NCBI GenBank assembly: GCA_937915545.1
Contig: CALGIJ010000021.1
Span: 36,815 to 100,814 of the forward strand
Length of the DNA: 64,000 nt
Direction of reading: 5' to 3'
Origin: an uncultured Desulfobacterales bacterium
Lineage (GTDB): Bacteria > Desulfobacterota > Desulfobulbia > Desulfobulbales > Desulfocapsaceae
Position numbers and translations under genes: made by a program. Numbering within the stretch: position 1 is the stretch's first letter; every line of letters starts with the position of its first letter. The notes beneath the pieces are model-generated. The model was not told the origin of the DNA. It searched no databases and worked only from the letters and a program-made list of their open reading frames with translations. Shown piece after piece: positions 15,701 to 38,562 of this stretch.

Positions 15701-15917
15701 TCACGCCATGGCACTCGTCCATCAACTCCTGCAGTCCTTCCCTGTCGATGATCTCGGCCAGTGTCACCCCACCCGCGCCCCTGCCCGGGCCAGGGTCACC
15801 GCGAAGACAGCCGGCGATGGCGGCCCGCCCGCCGCAAGGCGCCATGATGCCCTCGCCGAGCCACCCTCTCTCATCCTTGCCGCTGGCGCAGCCCATCGCC
15901 TCCCCCACGAAGTTCAT
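12783..15917 (-). CDS. Cytoplasmic hybrid histidine kinase with PocR-like N-terminal sensor, 3 PAS, HisKA, HATPase_c, REC
   Basis: PocR-like Cys/His-rich block ([27 protein letters not shown]...[13 protein letters not shown]). H-box [24 protein letters not shown]. Receiver (ILVVEDEPS...[13 protein letters not shown]...IKKPF). ATG 15917 forms an ATGA overlap with the upstream stop. Confidence 0.9.
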
Positions 15918-16165
15918 GACATGTCCTCCCCATCTTCGGACAGTTCCGGATACAGTCTTTTCATACACGGCGGACAGAGGCCGTGGCTGAACCAGCCCCC
16001 ATCGTGGTCGCCGCCAGCGCTCTGCGGCCAGGCCCAGTTGCCCTCCGGGTCGCGGATCCTGCCACAGCTGACACAGGCACAGGCGATGGCGGCGGGCGGC
16101 GGCATGCCGGCCGCAGACCCCGAGGGAGCCACCCCGAGGACCACCGACATGCAGAGGGCGTTCAT
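15914..16165 (-). CDS. 83-aa Cys/His-rich protein (putative zinc-ribbon module, function unknown)
   Basis: MNALCMSVV...CACVSCGRIRDPEGNWAW...FSHGLCPPCMKRLYPEL. There are ATGA overlaps at both ends, with CheY upstream and the kinase downstream. The same motif ends the protein at 34044-35222. Confidence 0.6.
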   Translation of the reverse strand: MNALCMSVVLGVAPSGSAAGMPPPAAIACACVSCGRIRDPEGNWAWPQSAGGDHDGGWFSHGLCPPCMKRLYPELSEDGEDMS

Positions 16166-16557
16166 GCCACCAGCTGCAACTTGCGCAGCTCCTCCAACAC
16201 CTGGGTCTTGCGGATGGGCTTGCTGAGATAGCCGTCGCAGAGGCGCTTCACCCCCTCGACGACATGACGCGGGAGGTCCATGGCAGTGGTGACGACGATC
16301 TTCGCCGCCGGCCACGGGCGTTCGCCCTGACCGGCCTCCCGCTCGCGGATGCGGCGCAGGGCATCCTGGCCGGTCCTGCGCGGCAGCATGACATCGAGGC
16401 AGATGAGGTCGTAGGGTTCCTCGTCGGCCATGGCGTCGCAGACCGCTTCCACTGCCTCCCGCCCGTTGACGACGATATGGCTTGGCCCGAAGCTCTTCAA
16501 AAACCCCTGCAGTTGTAAGCAACTGGTGAAATCATCTTCGACGATCAGTGTTTTCAT
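16162..16557 (-). CDS. CheY-like single-domain response regulator
   Basis: MKTLIVEDDF...DLICLDVMLPRRTG...KIVVTTA...YLSKPI. The ATG at 16557 overlaps the upstream kinase stop (ATGA). Confidence 0.9.
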   Translation of the reverse strand: MKTLIVEDDFTSCLQLQGFLKSFGPSHIVVNGREAVEAVCDAMADEEPYDLICLDVMLPRRTGQDALRRIREREAGQGERPWPAAKIVVTTAMDLPRHVVEGVKRLCDGYLSKPIRKTQVLEELRKLQLVA

Positions 16558-19127
16558 GGCGTGTCTCCTTGAATGGCCGTTTTCGACTCGGGAGTCGGCG
16601 GGGCAAGCTCCCCCGCCGCCATCTCCATGTTCTCCTCCGGCAGCCAGCGGTTGAGCACCTCGGTGAGGCTGCACAGGGAGAAGGGCTTAGCGAGAAAATC
16701 GTTCATGCCGGCGGCGAGGCACATCTCCCGGTCACCGGGCGCTGCGCTGCCGGTCATGGCGATAATGGGAACGGCGGATACCAGCGGCAACGGGCAGGCG
16801 CGGATCTCCCGGGTGGCGGCGATGCCGTCCATGCCGGGCATCTGCAGGTCCATGAGGATGAGGTCATAGGGCGGTGAGGCCAGCAAGGTGTCGACTGCCT
16901 CCCGACCATCGACGACACCGTCGGCAACGAGGCCCAGTGCCTCGAGGAGCCCCTCGGCGACCTTGCGATTGGTGGCGTTGTCGTCGGCCACCAGGATGCG
17001 GCAGAGCGCGCCTCCGGGGTTGGCCAGGAAGCGTCGCCTTTTGCAACCGTTAGCCCTCTGTCCGTAGGGGCGTTGCGCTTCCCCGGCCTGGATCGGCCGC
17101 TCGGTTCCGGCCGATTCATCCTCGCTGCCCACCTGACAGGCGGCACCGAAACGGGTGATGAACGAGAACTCGGCGCCCTCGCCGGGGACACTGCGCGCGC
17201 ATATGGTGCCGCCCATCAGCTCCACCAGCTCCCTGGCGACAATCAGGCCCAGCCCGGTGCCGCCGCAGGCCCGCCGCAGCGCCAGATCACCGCTGGTGAC
17301 CGGAGCCAGGAGCGTGTCGAGCACGTCCGCGGCGATGCCGACACCACTGTCGGCGACGGTAAAGCGCAGCGGCACCTCTCCGCCCGCCTCTTTCTCATCG
17401 GCCAATGCCACGCAGAGCCTAACCGTCCCGCGAGCGGTAAACTTGATCGCATTCTGCAACAGACGCACCAGAATCTGGCGCAGCCGACGGGGGTCGCCAC
17501 GCAGGCTGGATGGCAGCTCCGGGGCGATGGAGACCTGCAGCTCGAGCCTTTTGTCGCCAGCCTTGACAGCCATGGCGGCGACGACCTCGTCGAGAAGATG
17601 GCTCAGGCTGAAGTCGACCGTGTCGAGCACGATGGTTTCTTTTTCCATCCTCGCCACCTCGTCGATGTCGTCGAGCACGCCGAGCATCGATTGAGCGCAA
17701 CGGCAGAGCAGCTCGGCGAGACGCGCCCTGCACTCGCCGCGGCTGTCGTCGCGCAGCTGCGCGGTCAGGCCGGCCATGGCGTTGAGCGGCGTGCGCAGCT
17801 CGTTGCTGACCGTGGCGAGGAAGTCGCTCTTGCCCCTGGTGGCCGCCTGCGCCACCTCGGCCATGGCTCGCGCCCGGCCAAGTTCCTCCTGCAGCCTGCG
17901 GCACACCTCGACCAGTTTCGCTTCCGCCCTGCTGCGCCGGGAATTGTCGACGATACACTCGAGGACCTTCTCGCGCTGGCCGAGTTGGAAAGGCAGCACC
18001 GTCCTCGTGACGGGCAGGAGGCTGCCGTCGGCGCGCAGCATGAGGACTTCATCCCCCCCCCCTTCGCTGCCGCCGGCATCGACCCGGGCGTGATGCGGCG
18101 CAACCGCGCGCAAGAGGGCCTGGCAGCGCTGGCCGAGGAGATGGCTCGGCGGGGCGCCGAAGAGTTCGGCGACATGGCTGGAGACCCGTTCGATGCGCTG
18201 CGTCTCCGCATCGACGATGACCAGCCCCAGCGGCAGATGGTCGAAGAGGGCCTGCTGCAAGGCCATCGCCTCCTTGAACGCCTCGCGCCGCCGCCACTCC
18301 TCGCTGATTTCGCGCACCGTGACCGCCGCCCCCAGCACCATTCCGGAGCCGTCGCGAATGGGGGCGCAGCGCCCTTCCACCCGCCGCAGCGCACCGTCCC
18401 TGGCCACCAGCGCCACCGCCTCGCCGCTGACCACCACCTCGCCGTCGCGCAAGGCCCTGTTCACCGCCAGATCCGCACTCTGCCGGGTGCGCGCGTCGAC
18501 CAGCGGCAGGACATCGTGCAGGGGCCGCCCCACCGCTTCCCAGCCGCTCCAGCCGGTCAGGCGCTCGGCGATGTGGCTCATCGTCACCACCCGGCCCTGG
18601 CGGTCGCAGGCGATGACCGCCTCGTCGATGGAACGAAGCGTGGCGAAGAGGTACTGCTCGCTGTCGAAGAGGGAGGCGGAGCGCACCCGCAGTAAGCCCT
18701 CCACCGTCTGGCGGCGCCGCCCCACGGCGGAGACGATCACCGCCAGCACCACCGACAGCAGCAATCCGCAGAGCCCGAGGGATAGCGTCGTGCGCAGCGT
18801 GGCGGCGACGGCGGCCTGGCGCACCGCCTCGATGCCAGCAGAGCGGGTCGCCTCGGCAATGGCCCACCGAGAAGACGTGGTGTGCGGCAGAGGTGCCTCG
18901 CGGAAAAGGTCGCCGCTGCCGGCAGGAACTGCGGTACCGTATACTGTATCCGTCAAGGCTGGCGGGGAGTCTCCCCGGCCGACAGTGCCAAAGGTCAGCC
19001 CCCAGACCGAAAGGAAGGTCAGGAGAAAGACGAGGAGGAACAGGTGGCGAGAGATCATGGCAGCGACCAGCGAAGGCCAGCGGCAAAGCCATCGGCAGCA
19101 TGTCTGAGCAAGGTTTTGCGGTATCAT
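16554..19127 (-). CDS. Membrane hybrid histidine kinase (TM, 2 PAS, HisKA, HATPase_c, REC)
   Basis: SNELRTPLNAM H-box. GTGLGLIVARELVELMGG. Receiver (RILVADDNATN...DLILMDLQMPGMDG...FLAKPF). ATG 19127 has a GAGGAG SD; the longer ORF begins with TTG at 19166. Confidence 0.85.
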   Translation of the reverse strand: MIPQNLAQTCCRWLCRWPSLVAAMISRHLFLLVFLLTFLSVWGLTFGTVGRGDSPPALTDTVYGTAVPAGSGDLFREAPLPHTTSSRWAIAEATRSAGIEAVRQAAVAATLRTTLSLGLCGLLLSVVLAVIVSAVGRRRQTVEGLLRVRSASLFDSEQYLFATLRSIDEAVIACDRQGRVVTMSHIAERLTGWSGWEAVGRPLHDVLPLVDARTRQSADLAVNRALRDGEVVVSGEAVALVARDGALRRVEGRCAPIRDGSGMVLGAAVTVREISEEWRRREAFKEAMALQQALFDHLPLGLVIVDAETQRIERVSSHVAELFGAPPSHLLGQRCQALLRAVAPHHARVDAGGSEGGGDEVLMLRADGSLLPVTRTVLPFQLGQREKVLECIVDNSRRSRAEAKLVEVCRRLQEELGRARAMAEVAQAATRGKSDFLATVSNELRTPLNAMAGLTAQLRDDSRGECRARLAELLCRCAQSMLGVLDDIDEVARMEKETIVLDTVDFSLSHLLDEVVAAMAVKAGDKRLELQVSIAPELPSSLRGDPRRLRQILVRLLQNAIKFTARGTVRLCVALADEKEAGGEVPLRFTVADSGVGIAADVLDTLLAPVTSGDLALRRACGGTGLGLIVARELVELMGGTICARSVPGEGAEFSFITRFGAACQVGSEDESAGTERPIQAGEAQRPYGQRANGCKRRRFLANPGGALCRILVADDNATNRKVAEGLLEALGLVADGVVDGREAVDTLLASPPYDLILMDLQMPGMDGIAATREIRACPLPLVSAVPIIAMTGSAAPGDREMCLAAGMNDFLAKPFSLCSLTEVLNRWLPEENMEMAAGELAPPTPESKTAIQGDTP

Positions 19128-19361
19128 GGCGACGCAGTCTCCTCTCGTTGATGGTTGTTGTATCAATCCCTTGCGCTCGGCCCCGTTTCATGCCCGGCAA
19201 GGCCATCCGGCGTCACGCGCCCAGGGGCCGGCGTAGAAATCCTCGCAACTCGTTTCTTCCCGGCACCCCGCTCAGCACCTCGAGGCAAGGTACGAGCGTC
19301 AACTTTTCTGGGGTACCGTCGACCACAGATCCCCGGGGTTTGCCGCCTCCAGCGAGAAGGT

Positions 19362-22300
19362 TCAGCCTGGGCCGCAGTCCGCCGCAGGGTATGGGATGCT
19401 GATGACCACCCTGGTGCCACGCCCCGGCTCGCTCGACAGATCGATGCACCCGCGCAGTCTTTCCAGGGCGAGCCGGACAATGGGCAGGCCGAGCCCCATG
19501 CCGCGCCTGCCCAGACTGTTGCTGCCGCGCACGAAGGGTTTGAAAACCTTGGAAACATCCCCGGGCGAAATGCCAACCCCACTGTCCTCTATGGTGCACG
19601 TCAGGCAGGAGCCGTCATTGACCGCCGCCAGGCGGACAACGCCGCCGCCGGGGGTAAACTGAAAGGCGTTGGCGAGAAGATTGCCGAGAATGGCGCGCAG
19701 CAGGCTCTCGTCGCTGGAGATGGTGGCCACCGGACTGACGATGTCGAGGCGAAACTCCTGCCCATTGCCCCAGGTGAGCTCCATCTCCCTGGCCACCTTG
19801 CCGATAAACGCCTCAAGGGCGATATCGGTGTGCTGCGTCTCGCCGGTGTCGCTGCGCAGCCAGTCGTAGGAGCGCGACATCTCGACGAGGAAGGCAAGCT
19901 GCGAGGCGGCGCTGCGGATATGTCGCTCCTGGAGGAGGATTTCCTTCTCGTCGAGCCTCTCGCGATAGCGGGAGAGGATGTCGAGGCTGCTGTTGATCAG
20001 CGTCAGCGGGGTGCGGAATTCGTGGGCGACCAGCGACAGCATGCTCGCCTTCTCGGTGGCGGCGCTCTGCAGACGCTGGCGGGTGAAGAGCAGGTCGCGT
20101 TCGATGCGCATGCGCTCGCTGAGGTCGATCATGACGGTGAGAAAGTACTCGCGCCCCTGCGCGTTGACCACCTCGCCGCAGAAGAGGCCATGGAGGATAG
20201 TGCCGTCCTTGCGGCGGATGCGATGCAGGTGGTCGGTAATGCGCTTGTTACGCAACATTTCCTCGACCGAGGCGGTCATCTCGCCGGGATCAACGAAGAG
20301 GTTGAGTTCCGTGACCGTCTTGCCGACCACCTCCTGGCGCTGGTAGCCGAGGGTGCGCAGGAAGGTGTCGTTGACATCGAAGAAGACTTGCTGCGCGGCC
20401 GAGGTGATGGCCATGAGCGCCGGGTTGCGGCGGAACAGCGCCTCGAAGCGCTGCCGCTCCTCGCGCTCCGCGCTGAGGTCGCGCACCAGGCCGAAAATGG
20501 CCGGCGCGCCGCTCCAGCTGCCCAGCCACAAGCGTGTCTCCACCGAAAGGATGAGGCCGCTGCCGGTGAGTATCGGTAAGGGGCAGACCTCGCGCTCGCC
20601 ACTCAGCATGGCGGCGAAGAGCTTCTCGGCTTCCTCGCGCAGCAGCGGGGCGTAGAGATCGAGGAGGCGGACCCGGCCGAGCTCTGCCGCCACAAGCCCC
20701 ATGGTGTCGAGGAAGCGCCGGTTGGCGGCAAGGAGCTGGCCTTCCGGGGAAGCGACCACCACCATGTCGGAGATGGTCTCGAAGAGGTTGCGGAAGTTCT
20801 GTTCGTTCTCGCGCAGCCGCTCTTCGGCCAGCTTGCGCACGGTGATATCGGTGCGCGAACCGCGGGCGCGCCGTGGTCGCCCATCCTCGCCCCACTGCAC
20901 CACCTTGCCGCGGATATGCACCCAGACCCAGCGCCCGTCGCGGTGGCGCATGCGGCACTCGCTGTCGTAGACCTCGATCTCGCGGCGAGCGAGACGCTGC
21001 AGTTGCCCGAGGTTCTTCGCCAGGTCATCGGGGTGGACGAGCCTCTTCCAGCCCTCCAGGGTAATGGGGACGAGTTCCTCGCGGCGGTAACCGATCATCT
21101 CCGCCCAACGCTCGTTGACATCCATCTCGCCACTGTCGAAATCCCAGTCCCAGATGCCCGCCTGGGTCCCCTCGAGGACGCTCTCGAGGCGCTCGGCGGC
21201 CTGCCGCAAGGCATCGGCATTCTCGCTATGGCGGAGGAGGTGGCTCGTCTCCACCCTGGCCGCCAGCGCCTTCGCGCGGCTGCGCTGCACATCGCGCACC
21301 AGCAGCGCCACGCCGAGGCTGACGAGAAAGAAGATGCAGAACTGCAGCAGCTGCGAGGCCAGCGAGGGCGGCGCGCCCACAGCATTGAGATGAGGAAAGG
21401 TCAGCACCAGCGCCCCTGACAGCAGAAAGGCGAGGAGGCCCGCGCCGCCGCCGCCGAGAATGATGGCGAACATTACCGCCGGCACGAAGGTAAGCAGGTC
21501 GACATGGCCCCTGGCCGAGTCGAGCACGAGGAAGTGCAAAGCCCCGGTGAACAGCACCCCGACGAGGGCGATGGCGGAGAGAATCGGCAGGCGCAGCGAC
21601 GGCGCCAGTTCCTCGAGGGTGGTGGAGTTGAGGCGCCATGCCCCCTCGCGGGCCGCGCAGGTGGCGGCGACGAACATGAACAGGCCGGCGAGGTACTGCA
21701 CGCCGCGCCCGTACCAGCCGAGCAGCCCGCCGGTAGCTTTCTGCAGCAGGATGCAAAGCAGGCCGAGGGCCATGAGCTGCAGGCCGCGTTCGTACCAGGC
21801 CGCCGCGGCCTCAGGTTTCTCCAGCCACTGGGGCAATAGCAGGGCGGCGAGGGCGAACATGGCGACTGCCGAGGCAACGACAAACTGGCGCACCACGGTG
21901 CCACCGACACCGGCAACGAAGAACGGCGGCAGCAAGTCGCCGGCCGTCGCCAGGGCGATGAGCAGCGCCATCAAGGCGACCGCCCCGAACCCCATGCACA
22001 GCCACCAGCCCCGCCCGTCGGCGATCGTGCTACCGCTGAGCGAGGCGGAGAGCACCGCAGCCAGGTGGCACAGGGCGGCCACCCAGATGCAGCAGTTATG
22101 GATGGTGACCAGGGCGTTATCATCGAAGCGGCCTGATTCTTCCGGGAAGATGGCAACGATGGCGCCGAGCAGACCGGAAACACCCCACACCGCCGCCCCG
22201 CAGGCGAGGAGGAGGATGCCCGGCCTCCCTTCGCGAAGGAAGATGGTGGCGAACCGTGCCGAGACGACCACCGCTACCCCCTGATAAAAGATGGCATTGA

Positions 22301-22478
22301 GGAGCAGCAGCAGGTGCGGATTTTCGTATGACACGCCGCGGTCGAGGACGGCTGCAAGAGCCGCGGCGACCATCAGCCCGACAAGGATCGCGCCATGGCG
22401 CCGCCGACACGACGCTTCGCAGCGCGCCGTCCAGGGGACACCGCTCCGTGACTCAATGACCGGCGCAGTTGATTCCAT
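19362..22478 (-). CDS. Sensor histidine kinase with a roughly 10-helix integral-membrane sensor, 3 PAS, HisKA, HATPase_c
   Basis: About 400 aa of hydrophobic helices, then PAS repeats, H-box AHEFRTPLT and GMGLGLPIVRLALE. No receiver. ATG 22478 has AAGGA 8 nt upstream. Confidence 0.85.
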   Translation of the reverse strand: MESTAPVIESRSGVPWTARCEASCRRRHGAILVGLMVAAALAAVLDRGVSYENPHLLLLLNAIFYQGVAVVVSARFATIFLREGRPGILLLACGAAVWGVSGLLGAIVAIFPEESGRFDDNALVTIHNCCIWVAALCHLAAVLSASLSGSTIADGRGWWLCMGFGAVALMALLIALATAGDLLPPFFVAGVGGTVVRQFVVASAVAMFALAALLLPQWLEKPEAAAAWYERGLQLMALGLLCILLQKATGGLLGWYGRGVQYLAGLFMFVAATCAAREGAWRLNSTTLEELAPSLRLPILSAIALVGVLFTGALHFLVLDSARGHVDLLTFVPAVMFAIILGGGGAGLLAFLLSGALVLTFPHLNAVGAPPSLASQLLQFCIFFLVSLGVALLVRDVQRSRAKALAARVETSHLLRHSENADALRQAAERLESVLEGTQAGIWDWDFDSGEMDVNERWAEMIGYRREELVPITLEGWKRLVHPDDLAKNLGQLQRLARREIEVYDSECRMRHRDGRWVWVHIRGKVVQWGEDGRPRRARGSRTDITVRKLAEERLRENEQNFRNLFETISDMVVVASPEGQLLAANRRFLDTMGLVAAELGRVRLLDLYAPLLREEAEKLFAAMLSGEREVCPLPILTGSGLILSVETRLWLGSWSGAPAIFGLVRDLSAEREERQRFEALFRRNPALMAITSAAQQVFFDVNDTFLRTLGYQRQEVVGKTVTELNLFVDPGEMTASVEEMLRNKRITDHLHRIRRKDGTILHGLFCGEVVNAQGREYFLTVMIDLSERMRIERDLLFTRQRLQSAATEKASMLSLVAHEFRTPLTLINSSLDILSRYRERLDEKEILLQERHIRSAASQLAFLVEMSRSYDWLRSDTGETQHTDIALEAFIGKVAREMELTWGNGQEFRLDIVSPVATISSDESLLRAILGNLLANAFQFTPGGGVVRLAAVNDGSCLTCTIEDSGVGISPGDVSKVFKPFVRGSNSLGRRGMGLGLPIVRLALERLRGCIDLSSEPGRGTRVVISIPYPAADCGPG

Positions 22479-23175
22479 GGCCACGTCCTTGTTTATTGAG
22501 CGCCGCCGCGCTCCCCTTGGGCTTGCCGAGGAGCCCCTGGCGAGAGGCCAGCTCGGCCAGCTCGGCCCACCTGGAGAGCGTCGCCGCATTGGACGCGCCG
22601 AGCTTGCGCATCAGGCGGGAGCGATGCACTTCGACGGTCTTGGGGCTGATGAAGAGCCTCTCGGCGATCTCCCGCGAGGTGATCCCGGAGGCCACCAGCA
22701 GAAGGATCTCTAACTCGCGCTGGGATACCAGACGCAGTGCCTTGAGTTCCGCTTCGCCAAGCGCCTCGGCCTCCTTGGCAGCGGCCAGGGCGGCAAAGCG
22801 CCGCAGGCGCGACCGCACCGAGGCGATCAGCTCCTCGGTGGTGAACGGCTTGCAAAGGTAGTCATCGGCCCCGGCTTCCATGCCGCGGCGTTGATGGTGA
22901 TGCTCGTTCAAGGCGGAGATGAAGATGAACGGCACCGACGACATGGACGGTATCTCCTTGACCTGGCGATGCAACTCAAACCCATCGATATCCGGCATGA
23001 GGATGTCGCAGAGCACCAGGTCGGGCGGCATGGCGGAGATCGCCTCAAGCCCCTCGCGGCCATTTTCAGCAACCGTCACCTGGTAGCCTTCCATGCGCAG
23101 GATCAGGGCGATATTGTCACAGAGCAGCTGATCGTCCTCGACCACGAGAACCTTTGCACCTTTTGCTGTTTCCAT
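22453..23175 (-). CDS. LuxR/FixJ-family response regulator (REC + GerE HTH)
   Basis: KVLVVEDDQ...DLVLCDILMPDIDG...YLCKPF, plus SQRELEILLLVASGITSREIAERLFISPKTVEVHRSRLMRKLG. Confidence 0.9.
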   Translation of the reverse strand: METAKGAKVLVVEDDQLLCDNIALILRMEGYQVTVAENGREGLEAISAMPPDLVLCDILMPDIDGFELHRQVKEIPSMSSVPFIFISALNEHHHQRRGMEAGADDYLCKPFTTEELIASVRSRLRRFAALAAAKEAEALGEAELKALRLVSQRELEILLLVASGITSREIAERLFISPKTVEVHRSRLMRKLGASNAATLSRWAELAELASRQGLLGKPKGSAAALNKQGRGHGINCAGH

Positions 23176-27809: not shown

Positions 27810-30734
27810 ATGAGCCTCTCCCCCCGGCGCCGCTTCATCCTCCGTGCCACTGTCCTCTATCTCCTCTTCGGCAGCTGCTGGATATTCCTCTCCGACCAAC
27901 TGCTGCTCGCCTTCACCGACATCACCAGGCTGACCCGGCTGTCCACCGCCAAGGGCATCACCTTCATTCTCCTCACCAGCCTGCTCCTCGCCCTGGCGCT
28001 GACCGCCATCCCCGACCGCCGGGAAAGTGACGGCATCCGTCTGCGCAGCCGCAACCTCTTCCTCGCTGGTGGCGGCCTGCCCCACAGGGTGGCCTACCTC
28101 TTCGCCGTGGCGTCCTCCCTGCTGATGCTCGTGCTGCGCATGCACATCGCCGTTTCCTTCGACGAGCGCCCCCTGCTCATCCTCTTCATGCTGCCGATCA
28201 TCCTCAGCTCGGTGCTCGGCGGTTTCGGCCCCGGAGTCGTCGCCACGGTCATTTCCTCGGCCGGTATCGCCTTTCACGGCATTCCCCCGCGAGGCAGCTT
28301 TGCGATCGATGCCCCCCACGACCTCTTCCAGTGGTGCATGCTCGTCGCCACCGGCCTGCTCACCAGCTACCTCAACGACCTCCTGCACCGCGCCCGGCTG
28401 CAGGCGGAAGAATTGAACGAGCGGCGCGAACAGGCCCAGGAGGAGCTGCGGCAGAGCGAGGAAAGGTTTCAGCTGGCCATGCGGGGGGCCAACGACGGCC
28501 TGTGGGACTGGGATTTGCGCAGCGACGCGCTCTATCTCTCGCCGCGCTGGAAAGCCATGCTTGGCTATGCCGAGGACGAACTCGCCCACCATCTCGACAC
28601 CTGGCTCACCCTGGTGCACCCCGAGGACCGGCAACGCACCCTCGACCTGGTCGAGGACCTGCGCGCCGGACGCAGCGAGCGTTTCGAGACCGAGTTCCGC
28701 ATGCGTCACAAGGACGGCAGCTACCGCGAGATCCTCTCGCGCGCCTTTCCCGCCCGCGACGATCAGGGCGAGGTGGTGCGCCTGGTCGGTACCCATATCG
28801 ACATGACCGAGCGCAACCATGCCGCGCTGAAGATGGCCGAGCAGGCCAGCCTGCTGGAGAGGACCAGCAGAATGGCCAAGGTCGGCGGCTGGCGCTTTGC
28901 CATCGCCGACGGCAAAGGCACCTGGACGGCGGAGGTGGCGCGCATCCACGATGTCGACCCGGAGCGGGAGACGAGCAGGGAGTTCGGCCTGAACTTCTAC
29001 CAGGGCGAACACCGCCAGGCCATCGAGAACGCCATCGCCCGGGCGGTCAGCGACGCCATCCCCTACGACCTCGAACTGGAAATGACCACCGCCAGTGGAG
29101 CGACCAAATGGGTGCGCACCATCGGCCAGCCGGTCGTCGAGGACGGCCGGGTGACCGCCCTCGAAGGCGTTCTGCTCGACATCAGCGAACGCAAGCGGGC
29201 GGAAGCGGCGGTGCGCGAGAGTGAAGCGCGGCTGCGCGCCATCATCGACAACGTCCCCGACGGCATCATCCACCTCTCGCCCGCCCTCGAAGTACGCTGG
29301 GTCAACCTCGCCGCCAGGCGCCTCTTCACCCTCGACGACGATGCTACCGCCCTGGGCCTGCCCTGCCACCACACCTTCTGGGACAAGACGCAACCCTGCC
29401 TGTCCTGCCCGGTGACGCGCTGCGCCACCTCCCTGAAAAACGAGACCGGCACCCTCAAGCCCCTCGATGAACAGGGACCGGAGTTCGAGGTACGGGCCGT
29501 GCCGATCCTCGGCGGCAGCGGGCGGCTCGAAGGCATCATCGAGATCGTCCGCGACACCACCACCTTAAAGCGCCTCGAGGAGCAGGTGCGTCAGGCACAG
29601 AAGATGGAATCGGTGGGCACCCTGGCCGGAGGCATCGCCCACGACTTCAACAATATCCTCTCGGCGATCCTCGGCTATGGCGAGCTGGCCCTCGAGGAAC
29701 TGCCCGCCGACAGCCCCGGCCGGGCCAGCGTCACCACCATCATCGAAGCCGGCCAGCGTGCCGCCCACCTCACCAAAGACCTGCTGCTCTTCAGCCGCAA
29801 GCAGAGCAGCCAGAAGCAACTCGTCGACCTCAACGAGGTGGTGGTGAGAATCGAGAAATTCATCAAGCGCATCATCGGCGAGGACATCCTCTGCCATACC
29901 GACCTCGCCAAGGAGGCGCTACCCCTGCGCGCTGATCCCCACCAGCTCGAGCAGGTGCTGATGAACTTCGCCACCAACGCCCGAGACGCCATGCCCCACG
30001 GCGGCACCCTGACCATCACCACCAGCCGTCTGACCCTCGACCGCGACTTCGTCGACCTGCACGGCTTCGGCACGCCGGGGAGCCACGCCCTGCTTACCGT
30101 CAGCGACAGCGGCAAAGGCATGGACAAGGCCACCGCGGCCAAGATCTTCGAGCCGTTCTTCACCACCAAGGGCATCGGCCAAGGCACCGGCCTCGGCCTG
30201 GCGGTGGTCTACGGCATCGTCCATGACCACCAGGGCCATATCAACGTCTACAGCGAACCGCTCAAAGGCACGGTGTTCCGCGTCTACCTGCCGCTGTCAG
30301 AGGACACCACCGAGGCTGTCGGCGCCGTCCTGCCCGCCGAAAACCCCCGGGGCGGCAGCGAGACCATCCTCCTCGCCGAGGACGAACCGGCGGTGCGCGC
30401 CCTCTTTTCCCGCGTCCTCCGAGCCGCCGGCTATCGGGTCATCGAGGCCGCCAGCGGCGACGAGGCGGTACGCATCTTCGAGGGACAGGCCAGAGAAATC
30501 GACCTGCTGCTCTTCGACCTGATCATGCCGAAGATGGACGGTCGCCACGCCATGGAACTGATCACCGCCCAAAAGCCACAGGTCGGCTTTCTCTTCGTAA
30601 GCGGCTACGCCCCGGAAAACCTGCGCCGGCCGGAGATGCAGCACCTCCAGGAAGCGGTGCTCTACAAGCCGGTATCGCCGCGCGAGCTCCTCCAGAGAGT
30701 GCGCCAGACCCTCGATCGCCGCCACCACCACTAG
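27810..30734 (+). CDS. Hybrid histidine kinase (multi-TM N-terminus, several PAS, HisKA, HATPase_c, REC)
   Basis: H-box [36 protein letters not shown]. Receiver (ILLAEDEPA...[13 protein letters not shown]...LYKPV). One PAS carries a 4-Cys insert ([20 protein letters not shown]). SD GGAGGG lies upstream. Confidence 0.9.
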
Positions 30735-30812: not shown

Positions 30813-31820
30813 TCACCCCTCCCGCGCCGCCTCCCCCTTTGCCTTATGCCCAGCAGTACGCTCCTGCCCGGTCTCTTCACCCGCGCCAGCACCTCCGACG
30901 CGGGCAAAAAGGTAGAGACCGAGACCGGCGAGGGTGACGGCGATGCCGAGGAGGCCGAGGGGCGTCGGCGGCACTGCCTCGAGCAAGAGCATCTCCAGCG
31001 CCAGGGCAAAGAGCACCTCGCTGGCCTGGGTGGCGTCGACCGCGGTCAGCTGGTAGGCATTGCCGGCCAGCTGCCGCGCGTGAAGAAAAAAGCCGGTGGC
31101 GATGAGCCCCGAACAGAGGGCCACCAGAGCGGTCTGGCCCAGCTGCCCGGCGCTTGGCCAGGGGGGCCTCACCAGCAGCAGCAAGGCTACCCAGAAGGGC
31201 AGCGAGCCGAGGGTGAGGAGAAAGACCTTGACGAAGGGGCGGGCCAGCTCAGGGTCGGAGAGCCGTGGCAAGGCGGGGCGGTGGCGGTTTTCCGCCTCCC
31301 ACACCAGCTGATTACCGAGCGGATAGCAGATGGCGGCGAGGAAGACGGGGATGGCGCCTCGGAGGATTTCCGCCGCCGCGGCCTGCTCGGCGCGGCTGAG
31401 GTTGATCAGCACCACGCCGGCGAAGATGAGCAGCGAAAAGAGCAGGGCGCGCCAGGAGAGACGGTGCCCGAAGAGGCGCAGCACCAGGGGGGTGGCAAGA
31501 ATGGTCGACTGCCAGGTGGCGGCGACCACCCAGGCCGGGGCGTAGCTGGCGCTGTAGGTGATCAGGGCGTAGAAGAAACCGAAGCCGACCGTGCCGGAGA
31601 GGGTCCAGAAAAGAAAATGGCGCCGATAGAGGGCGAGGACCGGTCGGAGACGGCCGCGGCAGGCGGCGAAGCCAAGCCAGAGGAAGAAGGCCATGAAGAA
31701 GTAGCGCAGGGCGGCGCTCCACAGCCAGTGGCCGCCCTGCAGGCTCATCAGCCGGTTGAGGACGAAGGTCGAACTGAAGAAGAGCCCGGCGAGGGTGCCG
31801 AAGGCGATCAGTGGCAGCAT
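30813..31820 (-). CDS. DMT-superfamily 10-TM membrane transporter (multidrug-efflux-like family)
   Basis: Ten hydrophobic helices in two 5-TM halves. No soluble domains. Charged Lys/Glu/Gly tail. Confidence 0.7.
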   Translation of the reverse strand: MLPLIAFGTLAGLFFSSTFVLNRLMSLQGGHWLWSAALRYFFMAFFLWLGFAACRGRLRPVLALYRRHFLFWTLSGTVGFGFFYALITYSASYAPAWVVAATWQSTILATPLVLRLFGHRLSWRALLFSLLIFAGVVLINLSRAEQAAAAEILRGAIPVFLAAICYPLGNQLVWEAENRHRPALPRLSDPELARPFVKVFLLTLGSLPFWVALLLLVRPPWPSAGQLGQTALVALCSGLIATGFFLHARQLAGNAYQLTAVDATQASEVLFALALEMLLLEAVPPTPLGLLGIAVTLAGLGLYLFARVGGAGAGEETGQERTAGHKAKGEAAREG

Positions 31821-31911: not shown

Positions 31912-32079
31912 CCCTTTCCTGGCAATAATGGGTATTTGCAAAAAACTGCTGCCTTTTTCGCCGCGATATGGCTAAATATCCCCGACCCCGCGGGGCTACA
32001 CGATACTACTGGCCTGCTCGCCACCATGACGCCGGCCCTGGCCCCCAGTCCACCGCAACGAGCCATCAGGAGAAGTTCC

Positions 32080-32559
32080 ATGACCATTACCATCGACGCC
32101 ATAGGCACCATCCGCAGCCCATTTTTCGATCTGGAAAACATGCCGATCCAGCCCGCCGGGGCGGCGGAGGTGGTCGGCACCCTGGAGATCCTGCCGCAGT
32201 ACGCCGAGGCCCTTGCCGACCTCGACGGCTTCAGCCATATCTACCTCATCTACCACTTCCACCGCGCCAGGCGCACCGCCCTGCAGGTCGTACCCTTCCT
32301 CGACACCGTGCAGCGCGGCGTGCTCGCCACCCGTTCACCGCTGCGCCCCAACCATCTCGGCCTGTCCATTGTCCGGCTGCTCGGGGTGCACGGCACGGAA
32401 GTGCGGGTGCAGGGCATCGACGTCCTCGACGGCACGCCGCTCATCGATATCAAGCCCTATATCGCCAACTTCGACCATGTCGCGGAGAGCACCTCGGGCT
32501 GGATGACCGCGGGAAGGAAAGAGGTTGCCGGCAAGCTCTCCGACGACCGCTTCGTCTGA
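32080..32559 (+). CDS. trmO: tRNA (t6A37-N6)-methyltransferase TrmO/TsaA family
   Basis: IGTIRSPF...FSHIYLIYHFH...RSPLRPNHLGLSIVRL...IDVLDGTPLIDIKPY is the hallmark TsaA-like fold signature. SD AGGAGA lies before ATG 32080. Confidence 0.85.
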   Translation: MTITIDAIGTIRSPFFDLENMPIQPAGAAEVVGTLEILPQYAEALADLDGFSHIYLIYHFHRARRTALQVVPFLDTVQRGVLATRSPLRPNHLGLSIVRLLGVHGTEVRVQGIDVLDGTPLIDIKPYIANFDHVAESTSGWMTAGRKEVAGKLSDDRFV

Positions 32560-33142: not shown

Positions 33143-33214
33143 TATGTCTCCCCCAAATCTCGTTCTCCGGAGAAAATTCCGGAGGTGGTTCTGTTCGCAA
33201 CCCAAGGTATCCTC

Positions 33215-33901
33215 ATGAAAAAGCACGTCATTGCAACATTTGCGGCCGTCCTTATGCTCTTCGGGGCCAGTTCCTCGTTCGCTCTCCCCGTTAAGGGTGC
33301 AACGGTGACCATCCTCGAAGGCCCCTATGGATCTACATCTGGGGGGGAGTTTCGCATCGTCGATCAAGCTGTCAGTGACCAAGAGTGGATTGGCTTCTGC
33401 CTGGAACTGAACGAAACGTTGAACTACAACACTCCCTATACGGTGAAAAGTGTCGCCAACTTTGCAGAGCAAGGAGGAGTGGGCGGGGCTGTCGATCACG
33501 ACAACGATGACGATACACCAACACGCGATGGATTGAGCCAGAGGTCCAAATGGCTCTACTACAACTATATGTTCGGAGATTACGAGTGGTCCCGCGATAA
33601 TTCACGTAACGACGCGTCGGCTAATATCGTGCAGAACCTGCTCTGGTATTTCGAGGATGAGATGGATCTAGACCGATCTTCAGATGCCTGGCAATTTTTC
33701 AGAAATGTTTTCCGCGACCAATACAGAGCAGATCCTTCCATATCCGGAACGGTAAAGGTGCTCAACATCATGGACGGCGAAACCTTCAAACAGAGCCTTA
33801 TCGTCGGCGAACAGCAACCGGTTCCGGAGCCGGCAACCCTGCTGCTAATGGGCAGCGGCCTGATGGGCATCGTCGGTCTGGCGAGGAGAAAGAAAAAATA
33901 A
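33215..33901 (+). CDS. Secreted PEP-CTERM-anchored protein with thioester-domain-like Cys and Gln motifs
   Basis: Signal peptide MKKHVIATFAAVLMLFGASSSFA. C-terminal VPEPATLLLMGSGLMGIVGLARRKKK is a PEP-CTERM sorting signal. Internal GFCLE (Cys62) and NIVQNLLWYFEDE (Gln140). GC is visibly lower than in the neighbours. Confidence 0.85.
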   Translation: MKKHVIATFAAVLMLFGASSSFALPVKGATVTILEGPYGSTSGGEFRIVDQAVSDQEWIGFCLELNETLNYNTPYTVKSVANFAEQGGVGGAVDHDNDDDTPTRDGLSQRSKWLYYNYMFGDYEWSRDNSRNDASANIVQNLLWYFEDEMDLDRSSDAWQFFRNVFRDQYRADPSISGTVKVLNIMDGETFKQSLIVGEQQPVPEPATLLLMGSGLMGIVGLARRKKK

Positions 33902-34043: not shown

Positions 34044-35222
34044 TCACTCATCCTCCACCCCTGGATAGAACCTGGCCAGGCAGTCGGGGCAGAGGCCATG
34101 GCTGAACTCGGCCTCGGTATGGTTGCGCACATAAACCTCGACCTGGTTCCAGAAGCCCTTATCGTCGCGGATCTTCTTGCAGTGCATGCAGATGGGGACG
34201 ATGCCGCGCAGGGTCTTGACCTGCTCCATGGCCCGCCGCAGCTGGTCGTTGGCCTCCCGCAGCCTGGTCTCGGCCTCCTTGCGCTCGGTGATGTCGATGA
34301 TGGCGCTATAGGAGCCACGAACACTGCCATCCGTGGCAAAGAGCGGCGAGGCCGAGACGATGGCCCATACACTCTTCCCTTCCCTGGTACGAAAGCGCCG
34401 TTCGAAACGCTCGTCGCGCCCCTGCTGGCGCTGCTCCTGGCGACGGTGGAAATCGGCCACGTCTTCGGGGAAGAAAAAGGATTCAAAGGGCCTGCCAAGC
34501 ACCTCTTCGACCCGATAGCCGAGCATGGCGGCAAAAGAGCGGTTGGCAAAGGCGATACGATGTTCCCCGTCGAGCTGCACGATGCCCTCGCCCACCGCGG
34601 TGACGATGCGGCGGAATTTCTCCTCGCTCTCGCGCAGGGCGTCGTCGACGCGCTTGCGCTCGATGGCGATGGCCGCCATATCGGCCACCGCGGCAAGTAC
34701 CTGGAGATGGTTCTCGTCATACCGCAACGGATCACTGTAACTCTGCACGGCCATCACCCCGACCGCCCCACGCGGTGTCTTCAAGGGGGCGCCGAGCCAG
34801 ATCTCAGAGGGAGTGCAGGGCGGCACGGTCAGGCCGCAGCTCTCGCGGAAAAGGCTGATCTCCGCCCGGCGCAGCAGCATCGGCCGCTGTTCGCGGATCA
34901 CCCAGGCGCTGAGCGAGGCGGTGTTGCTGACATTGAGGGCGATCGGGTAGCAGCTGTCGACCTTGTCGACAAAATAGGGAAAGGTCAGGCTGTCGTCCCC
35001 GGGGTGGTAGAGGGCGATAAAGAAGTTTTCGGTATCGATGACCGGCGCCAGCGCCCGGTGGATGGTGGCGAACAACTCCTGCAGGGAGGCGGTGGTACTG
35101 ACCGCCTCGGCTATGGTTTGAAACACGCTGACGATGGCCTGCCAGCGCCGGTTGCGGCCGGCCTCCTCGGCAAGGCTCGCCACCTGCCGCTGCAGCTTGC
35201 GCATGGCTCTCGTTTCCCTCAT
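34044..35222 (-). CDS. GAF + PAS sensor protein ending in a Cys/His zinc-ribbon-like output motif
   Basis: N-terminal GAF-like region, then a PAS domain (FRRIVTAVGEGIVQLDGEHRIAFANRSFAAMLGY...), then the C-terminal ICMHCKKIRDDKGFWNQVEVYVRNHTEAEFSHGLCPDCLARFYP. The ATG overlaps the upstream kinase stop (ATGA). Confidence 0.85.
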   Translation of the reverse strand: MRETRAMRKLQRQVASLAEEAGRNRRWQAIVSVFQTIAEAVSTTASLQELFATIHRALAPVIDTENFFIALYHPGDDSLTFPYFVDKVDSCYPIALNVSNTASLSAWVIREQRPMLLRRAEISLFRESCGLTVPPCTPSEIWLGAPLKTPRGAVGVMAVQSYSDPLRYDENHLQVLAAVADMAAIAIERKRVDDALRESEEKFRRIVTAVGEGIVQLDGEHRIAFANRSFAAMLGYRVEEVLGRPFESFFFPEDVADFHRRQEQRQQGRDERFERRFRTREGKSVWAIVSASPLFATDGSVRGSYSAIIDITERKEAETRLREANDQLRRAMEQVKTLRGIVPICMHCKKIRDDKGFWNQVEVYVRNHTEAEFSHGLCPDCLARFYPGVEDE

Positions 35223-37492
35223 CGCGCACCTCCCCTTCCCTGCAAAGCCCGCCGTACGGCGCGGCCAAGGGATTCGAGGGTAAATGGTTTCTGGAGAAAA
35301 CAGACATCCTGGTCGATGACGCCATGCCGGGCGATGACATCGGCGGTATAGCCGGAGACGAAGAGGCTGCGTAGACCGGGATCAAGGCCCTTCAGCCGCC
35401 GCTCCAGTTCCCGGCCGTTCATCTCCGGCATGACCACGTCGGTGATGAGCAGGTCGAACCTCTCCCGCCCGCTGCCTACCAGGGCGATGGCCTCCCGGGG
35501 CGACTGGGTGGAGGTCACCTGGTAGCCCGTGGTGGTAAGGATCTCCCGGGCGAGGGCGAGCAGGCCGGCGTCGTCCTCCACCAGCAGGATCCTTTCGCCC
35601 TGCCCCTGCAGGGCTTCGCCCCCGGCACCGGCCGCCGCGCCATCCCCCTCGCCGCCACCGCGCGGGAAATAGAGCCTGAAGGTAGTCCCCCGGCCCGGCG
35701 CGCTGTGCACATCGATGAAGCCGCCATTCTGCCGCATGACCCCATAGACCGTGGCCAGGCCCATGCCGGTGCCCTTGCCGGGCTCCTTGGTGGTGAAGAA
35801 CGGCTCGTAGATCTGCGCGATGGTGGCCTCATCCATGCCGCAGCCGTTGTCGCTGACCGTCAGCGCCACATATTGTCCCGGCTGGCTCTCGGCGATATGG
35901 CGGCAGGCGGAGGCGTCGACGTCGACGTTGCAGGTTTCGAGGACGATGGCGCCCGAGGCGCCGATGGCGTCGCGGGCGTTGACGCAGAGGTTGATGAGCA
36001 ACTGGTCGAGCTGGCTGGGGTCGATCCACACCGACCACCCTCCCGCCCCACCTCGCCACTCGATGGCGATATGCTCGCCGATGAGGCGGCGCAGCATGGG
36101 CAGCATATCCTCCACCGCCTTGTCGAGATCGATGGTCTGCGGGGCGATGTTCTGCTTGCGGGCGAAAGCGAGGAGCTGGCCGACCAGGCTCGCCGAGCGC
36201 AGGGTGGTCTCCTCGACGACGCGCAGACGGTTCGCCATGGGGTCGTGGGGAGGCAACTTCATCAGGGTGAGCTGCACCATGCCGAGGATGACCGTCAGCA
36301 TATTGTTGAAGTCGTGGGCGATGCCCCCGGCGAGACGGCCCACCGACTCCATTTTCTGTGCCTGCAGAAGCATCTCGCGCAGCCGCTCCTTTTCCGTCTC
36401 GGCACTCTTGAGGTCGGAGACGTCGCGGATCATCTCGATGGCCCCGATGCGTTCCCCGGCACGATTGTAGATCGGCGCCGCCACTCCCCAGAGGTAAGCG
36501 CCCCGCCCCTGGTGGAGCGTCGGCACGAAAGATTCGGCGTGGATCGCCTGATGCTGCCGGTGCACGGAGAGATAGGCCGCCTCGCAGCGGGCGTCGGGTT
36601 GATCGAGCAGGTCGACGAGGATCGGCCGCCGTTCACCGAAAAAGGGCTCGGCATAGATATAGTCGCCCTTGCCGATGACCGCCTCTCGACCGACGCCGGT
36701 GAGCTCCTCCGCCGCCCTGTTCCAGATGACCACCCGCCGCCCGGTGTCGACGATGAAGGTGGCGTCGGGAAGGAAGTCGATGATATCGACGAGGAACTGC
36801 CTCTCGGCGGCGAGCTTTTGCTCGGTGCGCCGCTGCTCGTCGCTCTTGGCGGCGATATGCCCAACCATGTCGTTGAAGTGAGAGATGAGCCGATTGACAT
36901 CGGCATAGCGGGTCAGCGGGATGACCGTGGTGTAGTGCCCGGCAGCCACCGTCTCCATGGTGCGAAAGAACTCGTAGAAGGGCCGCTGCACGCGGCGGCC
37001 GACGAGACGGCTGACAATCACGTTGGCGACCAGCACCGCCAGGCAGACCGCCAGGGCGACGAGAAAACCGAGCCGTTGACTGGCCCTGACCGCCTCATGG
37101 CTGAAGGTGATGGTGAAGGCGCCGAGTTCCATGCCCTTCGCTTCTATAGTGCGCGAGATCGGCCTGATGCGCGACGAGGCAGCGCCCAGAGATTTCTCGA
37201 GGAGGATGCCGCCGGCGGTGGAGCTGAGCGAGATGCCGACGATCTTCTCCGAGGCGAGAAAGGTCTCGGCGATGCGCACCGCCGTCTCGTGGTCGACATT
37301 GTAGAGCGGGTATTCGAGGAGCGAGGCCAGGTCGTCGGCGGTGGCCGCCGCCTCCTGGCGCAGCTCGTTCAGCAGCGACTCGGAGATGAGCACGGTGGCG
37401 GCCACCGCCACCAACGCCATGATCGCCAGAGAGACGGCGACGATCAGCGCCTGCACCTCGCCGAGCAGGGTCTTGGGCGTGCCGAAGGCCAT
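35219..37492 (-). CDS. Hybrid histidine kinase (TM, HAMP, PAS, HisKA, HATPase_c, REC)
   Basis: H-box [36 protein letters not shown]. Receiver (ILLVEDDAG...LLITDVVMPEMNG...LQKPF). ATG 37492 lies 2 nt after the SBP stop; the ORF track's 37498 is a TTG. Confidence 0.9.
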   Translation of the reverse strand: MAFGTPKTLLGEVQALIVAVSLAIMALVAVAATVLISESLLNELRQEAAATADDLASLLEYPLYNVDHETAVRIAETFLASEKIVGISLSSTAGGILLEKSLGAASSRIRPISRTIEAKGMELGAFTITFSHEAVRASQRLGFLVALAVCLAVLVANVIVSRLVGRRVQRPFYEFFRTMETVAAGHYTTVIPLTRYADVNRLISHFNDMVGHIAAKSDEQRRTEQKLAAERQFLVDIIDFLPDATFIVDTGRRVVIWNRAAEELTGVGREAVIGKGDYIYAEPFFGERRPILVDLLDQPDARCEAAYLSVHRQHQAIHAESFVPTLHQGRGAYLWGVAAPIYNRAGERIGAIEMIRDVSDLKSAETEKERLREMLLQAQKMESVGRLAGGIAHDFNNMLTVILGMVQLTLMKLPPHDPMANRLRVVEETTLRSASLVGQLLAFARKQNIAPQTIDLDKAVEDMLPMLRRLIGEHIAIEWRGGAGGWSVWIDPSQLDQLLINLCVNARDAIGASGAIVLETCNVDVDASACRHIAESQPGQYVALTVSDNGCGMDEATIAQIYEPFFTTKEPGKGTGMGLATVYGVMRQNGGFIDVHSAPGRGTTFRLYFPRGGGEGDGAAAGAGGEALQGQGERILLVEDDAGLLALAREILTTTGYQVTSTQSPREAIALVGSGRERFDLLITDVVMPEMNGRELERRLKGLDPGLRSLFVSGYTADVIARHGVIDQDVCFLQKPFTLESLGRAVRRALQGRGGAR

Positions 37493-37494
37493 GG

Positions 37495-38343
37495 TCAAGG
37501 CTCCCCGGTGTACCTGGCGACAATGCCGCGGACGACGCCCTCACCCACCAGGCGATCCAGGGCCTCGGCCACGCGGTCGGCGAATTCGAGGTGCGGCGAC
37601 TTGCGCGAGAAGGCCAGAAAGAGGTCTGTTTGCCGGTTAGGCTGGTATGCGGTTGGCTCCACCGCCCCGCCCAGCCCCAGCCGCGCGATATCGTAGGAGA
37701 GGTTCGGCTCGGTGCCGATGATCAGGTCGAGACGCTTTAAAGCCAGCGCCTGGAGCAGCTGGGTCTCGGTGGAAAGGCCTTTCTTGTCGAGGCTTGTATC
37801 CGAATCGAAGGGCTCGAAATAGGCGGAATGCAGGGAATAGCCGATGGTCTTGCCACGAAGATGCTCGTAGATGGCGATCTCTCCGCCCCTGCCCCCAGTG
37901 GTGAAAAAACGCGGCCGCACGGCGCAATAGCTGGTGCCGACATAGCGCATGAAGATTTCGCGCTCCGCGGTGCGGGCGACGCCGCTGAGCAGATCGACCT
38001 GGCCGCTGCGCATCATCTCCAGGGCGCGGGCCCAGGGGTGGCGCTCGATGAGGATCTTCACCCCGAGGCGCTCTTGCAGAGCGGCGACCACATCGATATC
38101 GATGCCGCGAAAGCCGCTTTCGCTCTGCGGGTTGTTGATGCGAAACGGCGGCCACTCCTCGGTGGCCATGCGCAAGGCCGGCGCTGACTCGGCGGGAACA
38201 GCTCCAACGCAGTACGGCACCGCCGCCGCGGCCAGCGCGGCAAGGAGCCAAACCACCGTGGCGAGCCTTCGCTCTCCGTTCTTCCCGGCGCCCATACCCC
38301 CTCCCCTTGGCCGTACCAGCCGCGGCGAGCCGCTTCTCTCCAA
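37495..38343 (-). CDS. Periplasmic solute-binding protein, family 3 (amino-acid-ABC-type SBP), probably a co-sensor for the downstream kinase
   Basis: Signal-like LATVVWLLAALAAAAVP, then an SBP_bac_3 pattern (WPPF...GIDIDVV...RLDLIIG). Tightly coupled to the kinase gene. The start could be ATG 38295. Confidence 0.8.
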   Translation of the reverse strand: MERSGSPRLVRPRGGGMGAGKNGERRLATVVWLLAALAAAAVPYCVGAVPAESAPALRMATEEWPPFRINNPQSESGFRGIDIDVVAALQERLGVKILIERHPWARALEMMRSGQVDLLSGVARTAEREIFMRYVGTSYCAVRPRFFTTGGRGGEIAIYEHLRGKTIGYSLHSAYFEPFDSDTSLDKKGLSTETQLLQALALKRLDLIIGTEPNLSYDIARLGLGGAVEPTAYQPNRQTDLFLAFSRKSPHLEFADRVAEALDRLVGEGVVRGIVARYTGEP

Positions 38344-38562
38344 CAGCCTGACATGCCTGGTTCAAGTATAGAGGGGAGCCATCAGGAAGCAAGAATAATT
38401 TTCAAAAAACCCGTCACCGCTTCCCAATAACAGTCACAGCGAAGACCACGAGCCACTTTCGGACAGCAATTGGGCAGGATGGTCATCCGCCCAGGCCTCT
38501 TGCTGTCGATGAGTATGGTTGCCAGGGACACGGAAAGCCTCCACCTTCCCGGCCAATTCCTC

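Follow-up and report, generated by a model that had tools for sequence, protein, structure and literature searches.

TorT/TorS and LuxP/LuxQ are sensory systems in which the sensor kinase depends on a periplasmic solute-binding protein (SBP), and which end in an Hpt domain and a DNA-binding regulator. A locus with the same beginning was found in an uncultured Desulfobacterales bacterium, within a stretch of 64,000 nucleotides of contig CALGIJ010000021.1 (hereafter the window). As in the TorT/TorS and LuxP/LuxQ operons, the gene of a periplasmic binding protein is located directly upstream of the gene of a membrane hybrid kinase. However, the kinase of the window has no Hpt domain according to Pfam, and the gene downstream of it encodes a GAF-PAS protein of 392 aa without REC domain (hereafter the sensor), which carries four cysteines and one histidine in its C-terminal tail. 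This Cys4-His module is the subject of the present analysis.

Among bacterial signalling proteins, those of PAS-HisKA and REC/PAS-GGDEF type are connected through the S-helix, a heptad-quantised and rigid coiled-coil linkage (Anantharaman et al. 2006, PMC1592074). The Cys4-His module has the same architectural place as the outputs coupled in this manner, namely HisKA/DHp of histidine kinases and GGDEF of Rec- and PAS-diguanylate cyclases. It is likewise reached by a long helix that starts from the PAS DIT motif or from REC alpha5 with a heptad-quantised linker, likewise served by many input domains, and likewise mutually exclusive with other outputs. It differs from HisKA and GGDEF because its approximately 50 residues are far too few for such an enzyme, four Cys and one His stand in place of a catalytic site, and neither its sequence nor its fold has a relative among those domains. 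The nearest published analogue, though only loosely comparable, is HalOD2, a predicted zinc-finger output with two CXXC motifs and of unknown function at the C-terminus of haloarchaeal REC proteins (Galperin et al. 2018, PMC5847659). Judged by that description, both are putative zinc fingers, rich in Cys and with a pair of CXXC motifs, at the C-terminus of REC proteins, but HalOD2 is limited to few halobacteria, its CXXC motifs are 20-25 residues apart instead of 29 and it has a HalX-like N-terminal part, whereas the carriers of the present module are bacterial.

We found that residues 339-392 of the sensor belong, as a canonical member, to a very large family of modules of about 50 residues, which has no name. 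By translation of the open reading frame (ORF) the C-terminus of the sensor reads IVPICMHCKKIRDDKGFWNQVEVYVRNHTEAEFSHGLCPDCLARFYPGVEDE, with the pattern C-x2-C-x26-H-x2-C-P-x-C, i.e. C-x2-C-x29-C-P-x-C. A profile hidden Markov model (HMM) built from the genome's own module copies matched the sensor copy with E 1.4e-31. An earlier note on this DNA had quoted the same peptide at the end of a GAF-PAS ORF of 392 aa, and both proved exact by translation and Pfam. Among 55 diverse sequences, C30, C33, W43, H60, C63 and C66 (numbering of the 77-residue fragment) were invariant. The matching residues C345, C348, W358, H375, C378 and C381 are all present in the sensor, and their columns were invariant also in 37 orthologues. 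The invariant Trp stands at +10 from the second Cys and the invariant His at -3 from the third. In the same 55 sequences, at least 90% conservation was observed for L-x-G-x-x-P-I before the first Cys and K-x-I-R-D-D-x-G after the second, and also for E-x-Y, A-x-F-S before the His, the Pro after the third Cys and a final Y-P.

The tail is the most constrained stretch of the sensor. There were 36 full-length orthologues at 48-92% identity, and orthologues with an overall identity of 57-71% kept 83-90% in the tail. Residues 337-387 held 28 of the 62 columns invariant across 37 orthologues.

A word-indexed search with the last 58 residues matched 2,006 proteins, whose N-terminal parts included PAS, GAF, REC, HAMP, MASE3, CHASE, Tll0287-like, SBP, CheR and other domains. 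Among these matches no precomputed Pfam domain lay over the tail, and no kinase, cyclase or methyl-accepting chemotaxis protein domain occurred in the architectures. A phmmer scan of 1.84 billion cluster representatives gave 21,482 clusters (defined at 50% identity) at E<=1e-3 and 15,702 at E<=1e-10. The host genome of the window had 10 module copies (E 1e-21 to 1e-31 with the profile from its own copies), which were joined to GAF-PAS, REC, PAS-like, dCache with transmembrane (TM) segment, SBP_bac_3 with TM segment and ArcB-like TM regions, while the remaining copies belonged to two small proteins with two TM helices, to a protein with an unknown 160-aa domain and to one free-standing protein. 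Because of the 10 copies in the host genome and the 21,482 clusters, the motif does not occur by chance. Of 201 genomes sampled evenly from the phylum of the window, 94 had 1-16 copies. Named genome records with the module belonged to Thermodesulfobacteriota, Nitrospirota, Chloroflexota, Spirochaetota, Acidobacteriota and Verrucomicrobiota/Kiritimatiellia/Lentisphaerae; further phyla with it were Planctomycetota, Bacteroidota, Calditrichota, Gemmatimonadota, Hydrogenedentes, Myxococcota and others.

Several unusual arrangements were observed in the family. In contig C16 of the host genome two convergent paralogues lie 1 nt apart (17755-18195 on the plus strand and 18197-18799 on the minus strand), each composed of two TM helices and the module only, and they are minimal family members. 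Two module copies were present in 39 of 254 family proteins (P0122-P0159), in the order [sensor-module][sensor-module], either through tandem fusion or through the merging of gene calls. A domain after the module is rare: REC-module-winged helix (IclR-type helix-turn-helix, HTH) was found in P0119 and at L095:5596-6402, and the fusion PAS-module-REC in P0099/P0100. A trio of genes at C30:25860-28232 of the host genome, outside the window, encodes a protein with B12-binding domain, a UroD/MtaA-like methyltransferase and a protein of about 214 aa in which an N-terminal domain of unknown nature precedes the Cys4 module. It recurs in one relative, in a Desulfotignum metagenome-assembled genome (MAG) and in an Actinomycetes MAG (L077, L111, L114), and it may be a corrinoid-linked sensory unit.

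The C-terminal module is widespread, yet it is absent from Pfam, NCBIfam and PDB. Residues 335-392 had no Pfam match, and the sensor as a whole contained no kinase, GGDEF, EAL or HTH domain in Pfam. NCBIfam added only PAS S-box and gave no match on the tail, so the earlier statement that the sensor has no recognisable output domain held in both libraries. The tails of eight paralogues likewise gave nothing in Pfam and NCBIfam. The best match of a profile search against PDB (E 0.15) was at chance level, and the Foldseek matches, all with E>1, were mostly DNA-binding or ribosomal zinc fingers. An AlphaFold 2 (AF2) model of the fragment from a diverse alignment (pLDDT 89.9) predicted a long helix (fragment residues 2-19) followed by the first knuckle, then a short hairpin and a helix, and finally the second knuckle with one more helix behind it. 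The AF2 model of the full-length sensor (pLDDT 86) predicted a long N-terminal helix (residues 2-43) preceding GAF, a helix at 170-207, PAS, the helix 312-338 and then the module, here with four short strands and two helices.

Two known families of small Cys motifs were compared and rejected. The anti-sigma motif of ZAS/zf-HC2 is H-x3-C-x2-C in a helical domain, while the module has H-x2-C-x2-C and no Pfam match. The C4 finger of DksA/TraR (PF01258), a globular domain next to a coiled coil, has C-x2-C-x17-C-x2-C against a spacing of 29 in the module, again with no Pfam match, and TraR appeared in Foldseek only with E 8.8 and TM-score 0.28. The membrane-anchored members of the family are incompatible with binding to the secondary channel of RNA polymerase, as in DksA/TraR.

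The position of the module is that of an output. It ended at most 20 residues from the C-terminus in 240 of 254 family proteins, and 11 residues before the stop codon in the sensor. HATPase_c was never present in the same polypeptide (0 of 144 module-bearing ORFs from 140 sampled loci). REC-module proteins accounted for 28 of these 144 ORFs, and 15 of the 28 genes were directly behind a same-strand kinase gene. In the diverse-phyla sample, 8 of 19 REC-module genes followed a hybrid kinase, and among six examined kinases upstream of REC-module genes, three had the architecture HisKA-HATPase-REC-REC-Hpt. Since REC-module genes stand behind kinases, some of which possess Hpt, the module is a genuine two-component output in these proteins, controlled by the phosphorylated receiver. 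The claim of the earlier note that the Cys/His tail is the sole candidate effector of the sensor is supported; the tail is in the output slot.

The distance between input domain and module was also regular. From PAS DIT to the first Cys it was 35 residues in 125 proteins, 28 in 19, 21 in two and 14 in one, so that 147 of the 161 proteins compared had a multiple of seven. The PAS domain of the sensor terminates in D310-I311-T312, and its distance of 35 residues, or five heptads, is the modal value. From the KP motif of REC to the first Cys the preferred distances were 48, 55, 41 and 62 (25 of 43 proteins), all of them 6 mod 7. A heptad-quantised linker points to rigid coiled-coil coupling like that in PAS-HisKA and REC/PAS-GGDEF proteins, and it would imply a parallel dimer whose two heads signal by their position relative to each other.

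We searched the neighbourhood of the module for a partner. About 150 loci contributed 919 neighbouring ORFs with a minimum length of 90 aa. After clustering, a generic supercluster of HK, REC and PAS proteins was present in 64 loci, and the other clusters were lineage-specific and occurred in at most nine loci each (ABC ATPases, the B12-binding/UroD pair, Hcp, pirin). Clustering of 2,242 small ORFs gave no broadly conserved one, only a genus-specific membrane protein of 54 aa. This peptide has two TM helices (MNINNLH...GGSNFHMR) and is encoded directly downstream of module-bearing sensors of about 960-1026 aa at L034, L038, L039, L040 and L057; these loci are from the window's genus, and the peptide is lineage-specific. 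Because no partner recurs in the neighbourhood, the target is not encoded beside the module, and together with the near-invariant surface-type residues across phyla this would favour a conserved, unlinked partner.

From these data we consider it moderately probable that the module is an effector head, dimeric and stabilised by metal, which makes or breaks contact with an unlinked protein target in a regulated manner. The binding of metal, the dimer, the action via a partner and any contact with the kinase are here what we infer. A single metal ion, Zn or perhaps Fe, is most likely bound by the four invariant Cys in a mini-fold with two knuckles. This head would hang on a continuous coiled-coil signalling helix with a length set in heptads, five of them in the sensor. 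Binding of a ligand by the GAF or PAS domain of a parallel dimer would shift the relative position of the two heads, and their arrangement would decide about the contact with a protein target encoded away from the module. In the window the sensor would be expressed together with the SBP-dependent hybrid kinase, the translation of the two being coupled. It probably adds a cytoplasmic input or an output branch to the SBP-kinase pathway, with which a cytoplasmic signal would probably be integrated.

Four points weigh against an effector head of this kind. No universal neighbouring partner of the module was present among the about 150 loci that were clustered. The heptad counts include related sequences which are not independent events, though the pattern spans phyla. 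The AF2 models are predictions of a metal-free monomer. Finally, no description of the module was found in the literature, including by its motif letters, but this coverage was incomplete and the module may be described elsewhere.

The features of the locus are shown in Table 1. The SBP gene is the first of a unit of three genes (SBP, hybrid kinase, sensor). The kinase has two TM segments, PAS (residues 236-360), HisKA (387-450), HATPase_c (493-613) and REC (637-748). As the earlier note had stated, 2 nt separate the end of the SBP gene from the ATG of the kinase, and direct reading of the sequence shows that the kinase stop overlaps the sensor start in ATGA. With the alternative TTG of the kinase, the SBP gene and the kinase gene abut. 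The sequence GGAGG is found 6 nt 5' of the sensor ATG, and this start codon is backed by orthologues aligning from residue 1 through 392. The terminator-like hairpin before the SBP gene would delimit the start of the SBP-kinase-sensor transcription unit, a weak suggestion from a consensus scan.

Table 1. Positions of the sensor locus and of related features in the window
Feature	Position	Strand	Basis
Terminator-like hairpin separating the SBP gene from the Ni/Co ECF operon upstream of it	38411..38433	-	consensus scan only, weak
SBP_bac_3 periplasmic solute-binding protein, 282 aa, signal-peptide-like N-terminus	37495..38343	-	Pfam PF00497, E 2e-14
Hybrid histidine kinase, 759 aa (TTG 37498) or 757 aa (ATG 37492)	35219..37498	-	ORF list, Pfam
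ATGA overlap of kinase stop and sensor start	35219..35222	-	direct sequence reading
GAF-PAS-Cys4 sensor, 392 aa (stop codon within coordinates)	34044..35222	-	ORF, Pfam, orthologues, AF2
GAF domain, residues 44-188	34659..35093	-	Pfam GAF_2, E 3e-11
Codon of Cys136	34815..34817		
PAS domain, residues 201-316	34275..34622	-	Pfam PAS E 9e-18; TIGR00229 E 1.5e-27
Signalling helix from PAS to Cys module, residues 312-338	34209..34289	-	AF2
Cys4-His module, residues 339-392	34047..34208	-	alignments, fragment model, family matches
Codon of C345	34188..34190		
Codon of C348	34179..34181		
Codon of H375	34098..34100		
Codon of C378	34089..34091		
Codon of C381	34080..34082		
Downstream genes (PEP-CTERM, TrmO-like, EamA)	33185..33901 (+), 31936..32559 (+), 30813..31820 (-)		
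Second module copy, divergent, free-standing; motif 15965-16075	15914..16165	-	HMM E 6e-27
REC gene beside the second copy	16162..16674		
PocR hybrid kinase beside the second copy	12783..15968	-	
Other large PAS-containing (hybrid) kinases	27810..30734 (+), 16554..19166 (-), 19362..22589 (-)		

In the GAF domain of the sensor, Cys136 (motif P-x-C-T-P) was invariant in 37 orthologues, as were P134, W142, L143 and G144. This cysteine is a candidate for the binding of a ligand or cofactor in the input domain.

A first alternative is that the module is a dedicated partner of hybrid kinases, either by docking to them or to their REC domain or as a phosphorelay connector, the pair being a functional unit. 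The ATGA overlap speaks for it. The second module copy is about 18 kb from the sensor, within the 20 kb given by the earlier note, between a REC gene and the PocR hybrid kinase. From these two neighbourhoods the earlier note had concluded a conserved functional pairing. However, large PAS-containing (hybrid) kinases abound in the window (Table 1), and in the 4.7 Mb of the host genome there are about 118 kinase ORFs, of which about 75 are hybrid, so that any argument from adjacency is inflated.

Comparison of nine orthologous loci, including the window, showed that the pairing is partly kept. The order SBP, hybrid kinase, sensor of the window was found also in L025 and L002. In G003 the kinase precedes the sensor and the contig stops at the kinase start, and in L028 an SBP-fused hybrid kinase is encoded immediately downstream of the sensor gene on the same strand. 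A same-strand adjoining hybrid kinase was therefore kept in five of the nine loci, usually with the SBP. A sixth locus, L001, has three divergent hybrid kinases, and L003 (=G013) has a divergent TetR gene. L026 and L027, which are 70% identical, have TonB-receptor/DUF4198 genes in the place of the SBP-kinase pair, but their downstream PEP-CTERM/TrmO/EamA synteny is as in the window. The kinases upstream of the sensor orthologues in L025, L002 and G003 have 752-761 aa. The ATGA overlap itself was not conserved, as kinase and sensor genes in the orthologous loci are separated by 69-92 nt. A full-length orthologue of the sensor was present in only 2 of 60 related genomes.

The three downstream genes were syntenic in three orthologous loci. 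Because this synteny is kept also in the two loci without the SBP-kinase pair, the pair was gained or lost as a block.

In the host genome, a same-strand hybrid kinase abuts 4 of the 10 module genes, against 5.6% of random positions (P=0.0016). This frequency is not significant against a baseline of signalling genes, since 17% of the REC-only genes of the host genome also abut a hybrid kinase (P=0.07). In the family as a whole the pairing is rare. Among 60 loci of relatives there were 62 module genes, 53 of them non-REC, with four near any kinase (within 250 bp) and one near a hybrid kinase; among 80 loci of many phyla there were 82 module genes, 63 of them non-REC, with four near any kinase and two near a hybrid one (one on the same strand). 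Pooled over 140 loci, eight of 116 non-REC members were near any kinase, three near a hybrid kinase and one near a hybrid kinase on the same strand. The kinase and REC profiles used here were built from the host genome and may miss divergent kinases, though they found one kinase per about 30 kb in the sampled loci, which is approximately the genomic background. The synteny analysis of motif and hybrid kinases proposed in the earlier note thus gave a double answer: the pairing stood at the level of the lineage, but not family-wide.

The REC-module genes of diverse phyla behind hybrid kinases (8 of 19) and the rare natural fusion PAS-module-REC might also be taken in favour of a kinase partner. 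However, the kinase link of REC-module proteins is explained by the receiver and not by the module. The sensor itself was negative for phosphorelay components, as Pfam detected only GAF and PAS, and without REC or Hpt direct phosphotransfer from the adjoining kinase is unlikely. We conclude that this orthologue group does have the pairing and that the host genome shows it often, but it is a facultative habit of the lineage and no property or rule of the module. That the module is a dedicated kinase partner is therefore, in our view, unlikely. The probabilities which we give to this and the other explanations overlap partly with that of an unlinked-target effector head and need not add up to certainty.

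A second alternative is that the module is a redox- or metal-responsive Cys4 sensor, with rubredoxin-type Fe or with an oxidisable Zn-thiolate as in Hsp33/RsrA, which is read by the protein itself or by its partners. The cysteines of Clostridium pasteurianum rubredoxin are C6/C9/C39/C42, and the spacing C-x2-C-x29-C-P-x-C of the module equals that of rubredoxin. Both have two CxxC knuckles, the second being CPxC, with short beta-hairpins around the knuckles in the AF2 model. The invariant His near the third Cys and the many anaerobic carriers (Desulfobacterota, Anaerolineae, Syntrophales) would also be matched with such a function. But the module has two internal helices and an extra invariant His and Trp which are different from rubredoxin, it lacks the Gly after the knuckles, it gave no Pfam match to rubredoxin (PF00301) at E<=0.1, hhalign against the host genome's own rubredoxin reached 12% probability, and no rubredoxin was among the Foldseek matches. 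Furthermore, such a function would leave REC-module and Cache-TM-module proteins with two inputs and without an output, a heptad-locked linker is typical of outputs, and aerobic lineages such as Nitrospira and Gemmatimonas carry the module too. We regard a Cys4 sensor as quite unlikely.

Third, the module might be a structural metal clamp like the Zn(Cys)4 site of Fur/PerR, capping and dimerising the coiled coil, while signalling would proceed via PAS, GAF or the helix, for example in mixed dimers with kinases. Paired side-by-side module genes are common, as in the C16 pair, and the double-module proteins would agree with a dimerising function. PerR (4i7h) also appeared in the PDB profile search, with a non-significant E of 3.8, but was absent from the Foldseek matches. 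However, conservation of at least 90% across phyla extends well past the metal ligands, to K-x-I-R-D-D-x-G-x-W, E-x-Y, F-S-H and Y-P, which is unusual for a pure clamp, and the minimal members with two TM helices hold nothing else able to signal. A mere clamp is slightly less likely still.

The last alternative, a nucleic-acid-binding zinc finger that would make these proteins one- or two-component regulators of transcription or RNA, is the least probable one, since its attractions (small Cys4 fingers frequently bind DNA or RNA, the weak Foldseek matches were mostly of this kind, and DNA-binding response regulators are usually built from REC and a small C-terminal domain) are outweighed by the module's net charge (median -2, mean -1.4, positive in only 20% of 293 copies), by the many members anchored to the membrane directly via the helix and by the rare members that append a separate winged-helix domain (P0119, L095), and no palindromic operator context was seen.

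After this comparison we still prefer the effector head with an unlinked protein target. In its widest form, which we propose tentatively and to which we give somewhat less than an even chance, the helix with the Cys4-His head would be a general unrecognised transmitter domain of bacterial signalling, on a par with HisKA, GGDEF/EAL, MCP and HTH outputs, present in more than 20,000 clusters of PAS, GAF, REC, Cache, SBP and bare-membrane sensors from a dozen or more phyla and converging on one conserved unlinked target, and in the present locus it would constitute a second, phosphorylation-independent output arm of the SBP-hybrid-kinase pathway.

The locus of the window provides a concrete kinase-sensor pair in one lineage, and the function of the module is not revealed by it. 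If the module is a real output device, a large share of the bacterial sensors whose annotation says no more than 'PAS domain S-box protein' or 'response regulator' signal via an untraced route. The module is carried by about half of the sampled genomes of the phylum, in up to 16 copies per genome. Its small size, solubility and near-invariance, together with the minimal members (two TM helices and the module, or the free-standing copy) and the pairs of REC-module protein and kinase, make the family accessible for experiments. Once found, the target would make sense of tens of thousands of genes.

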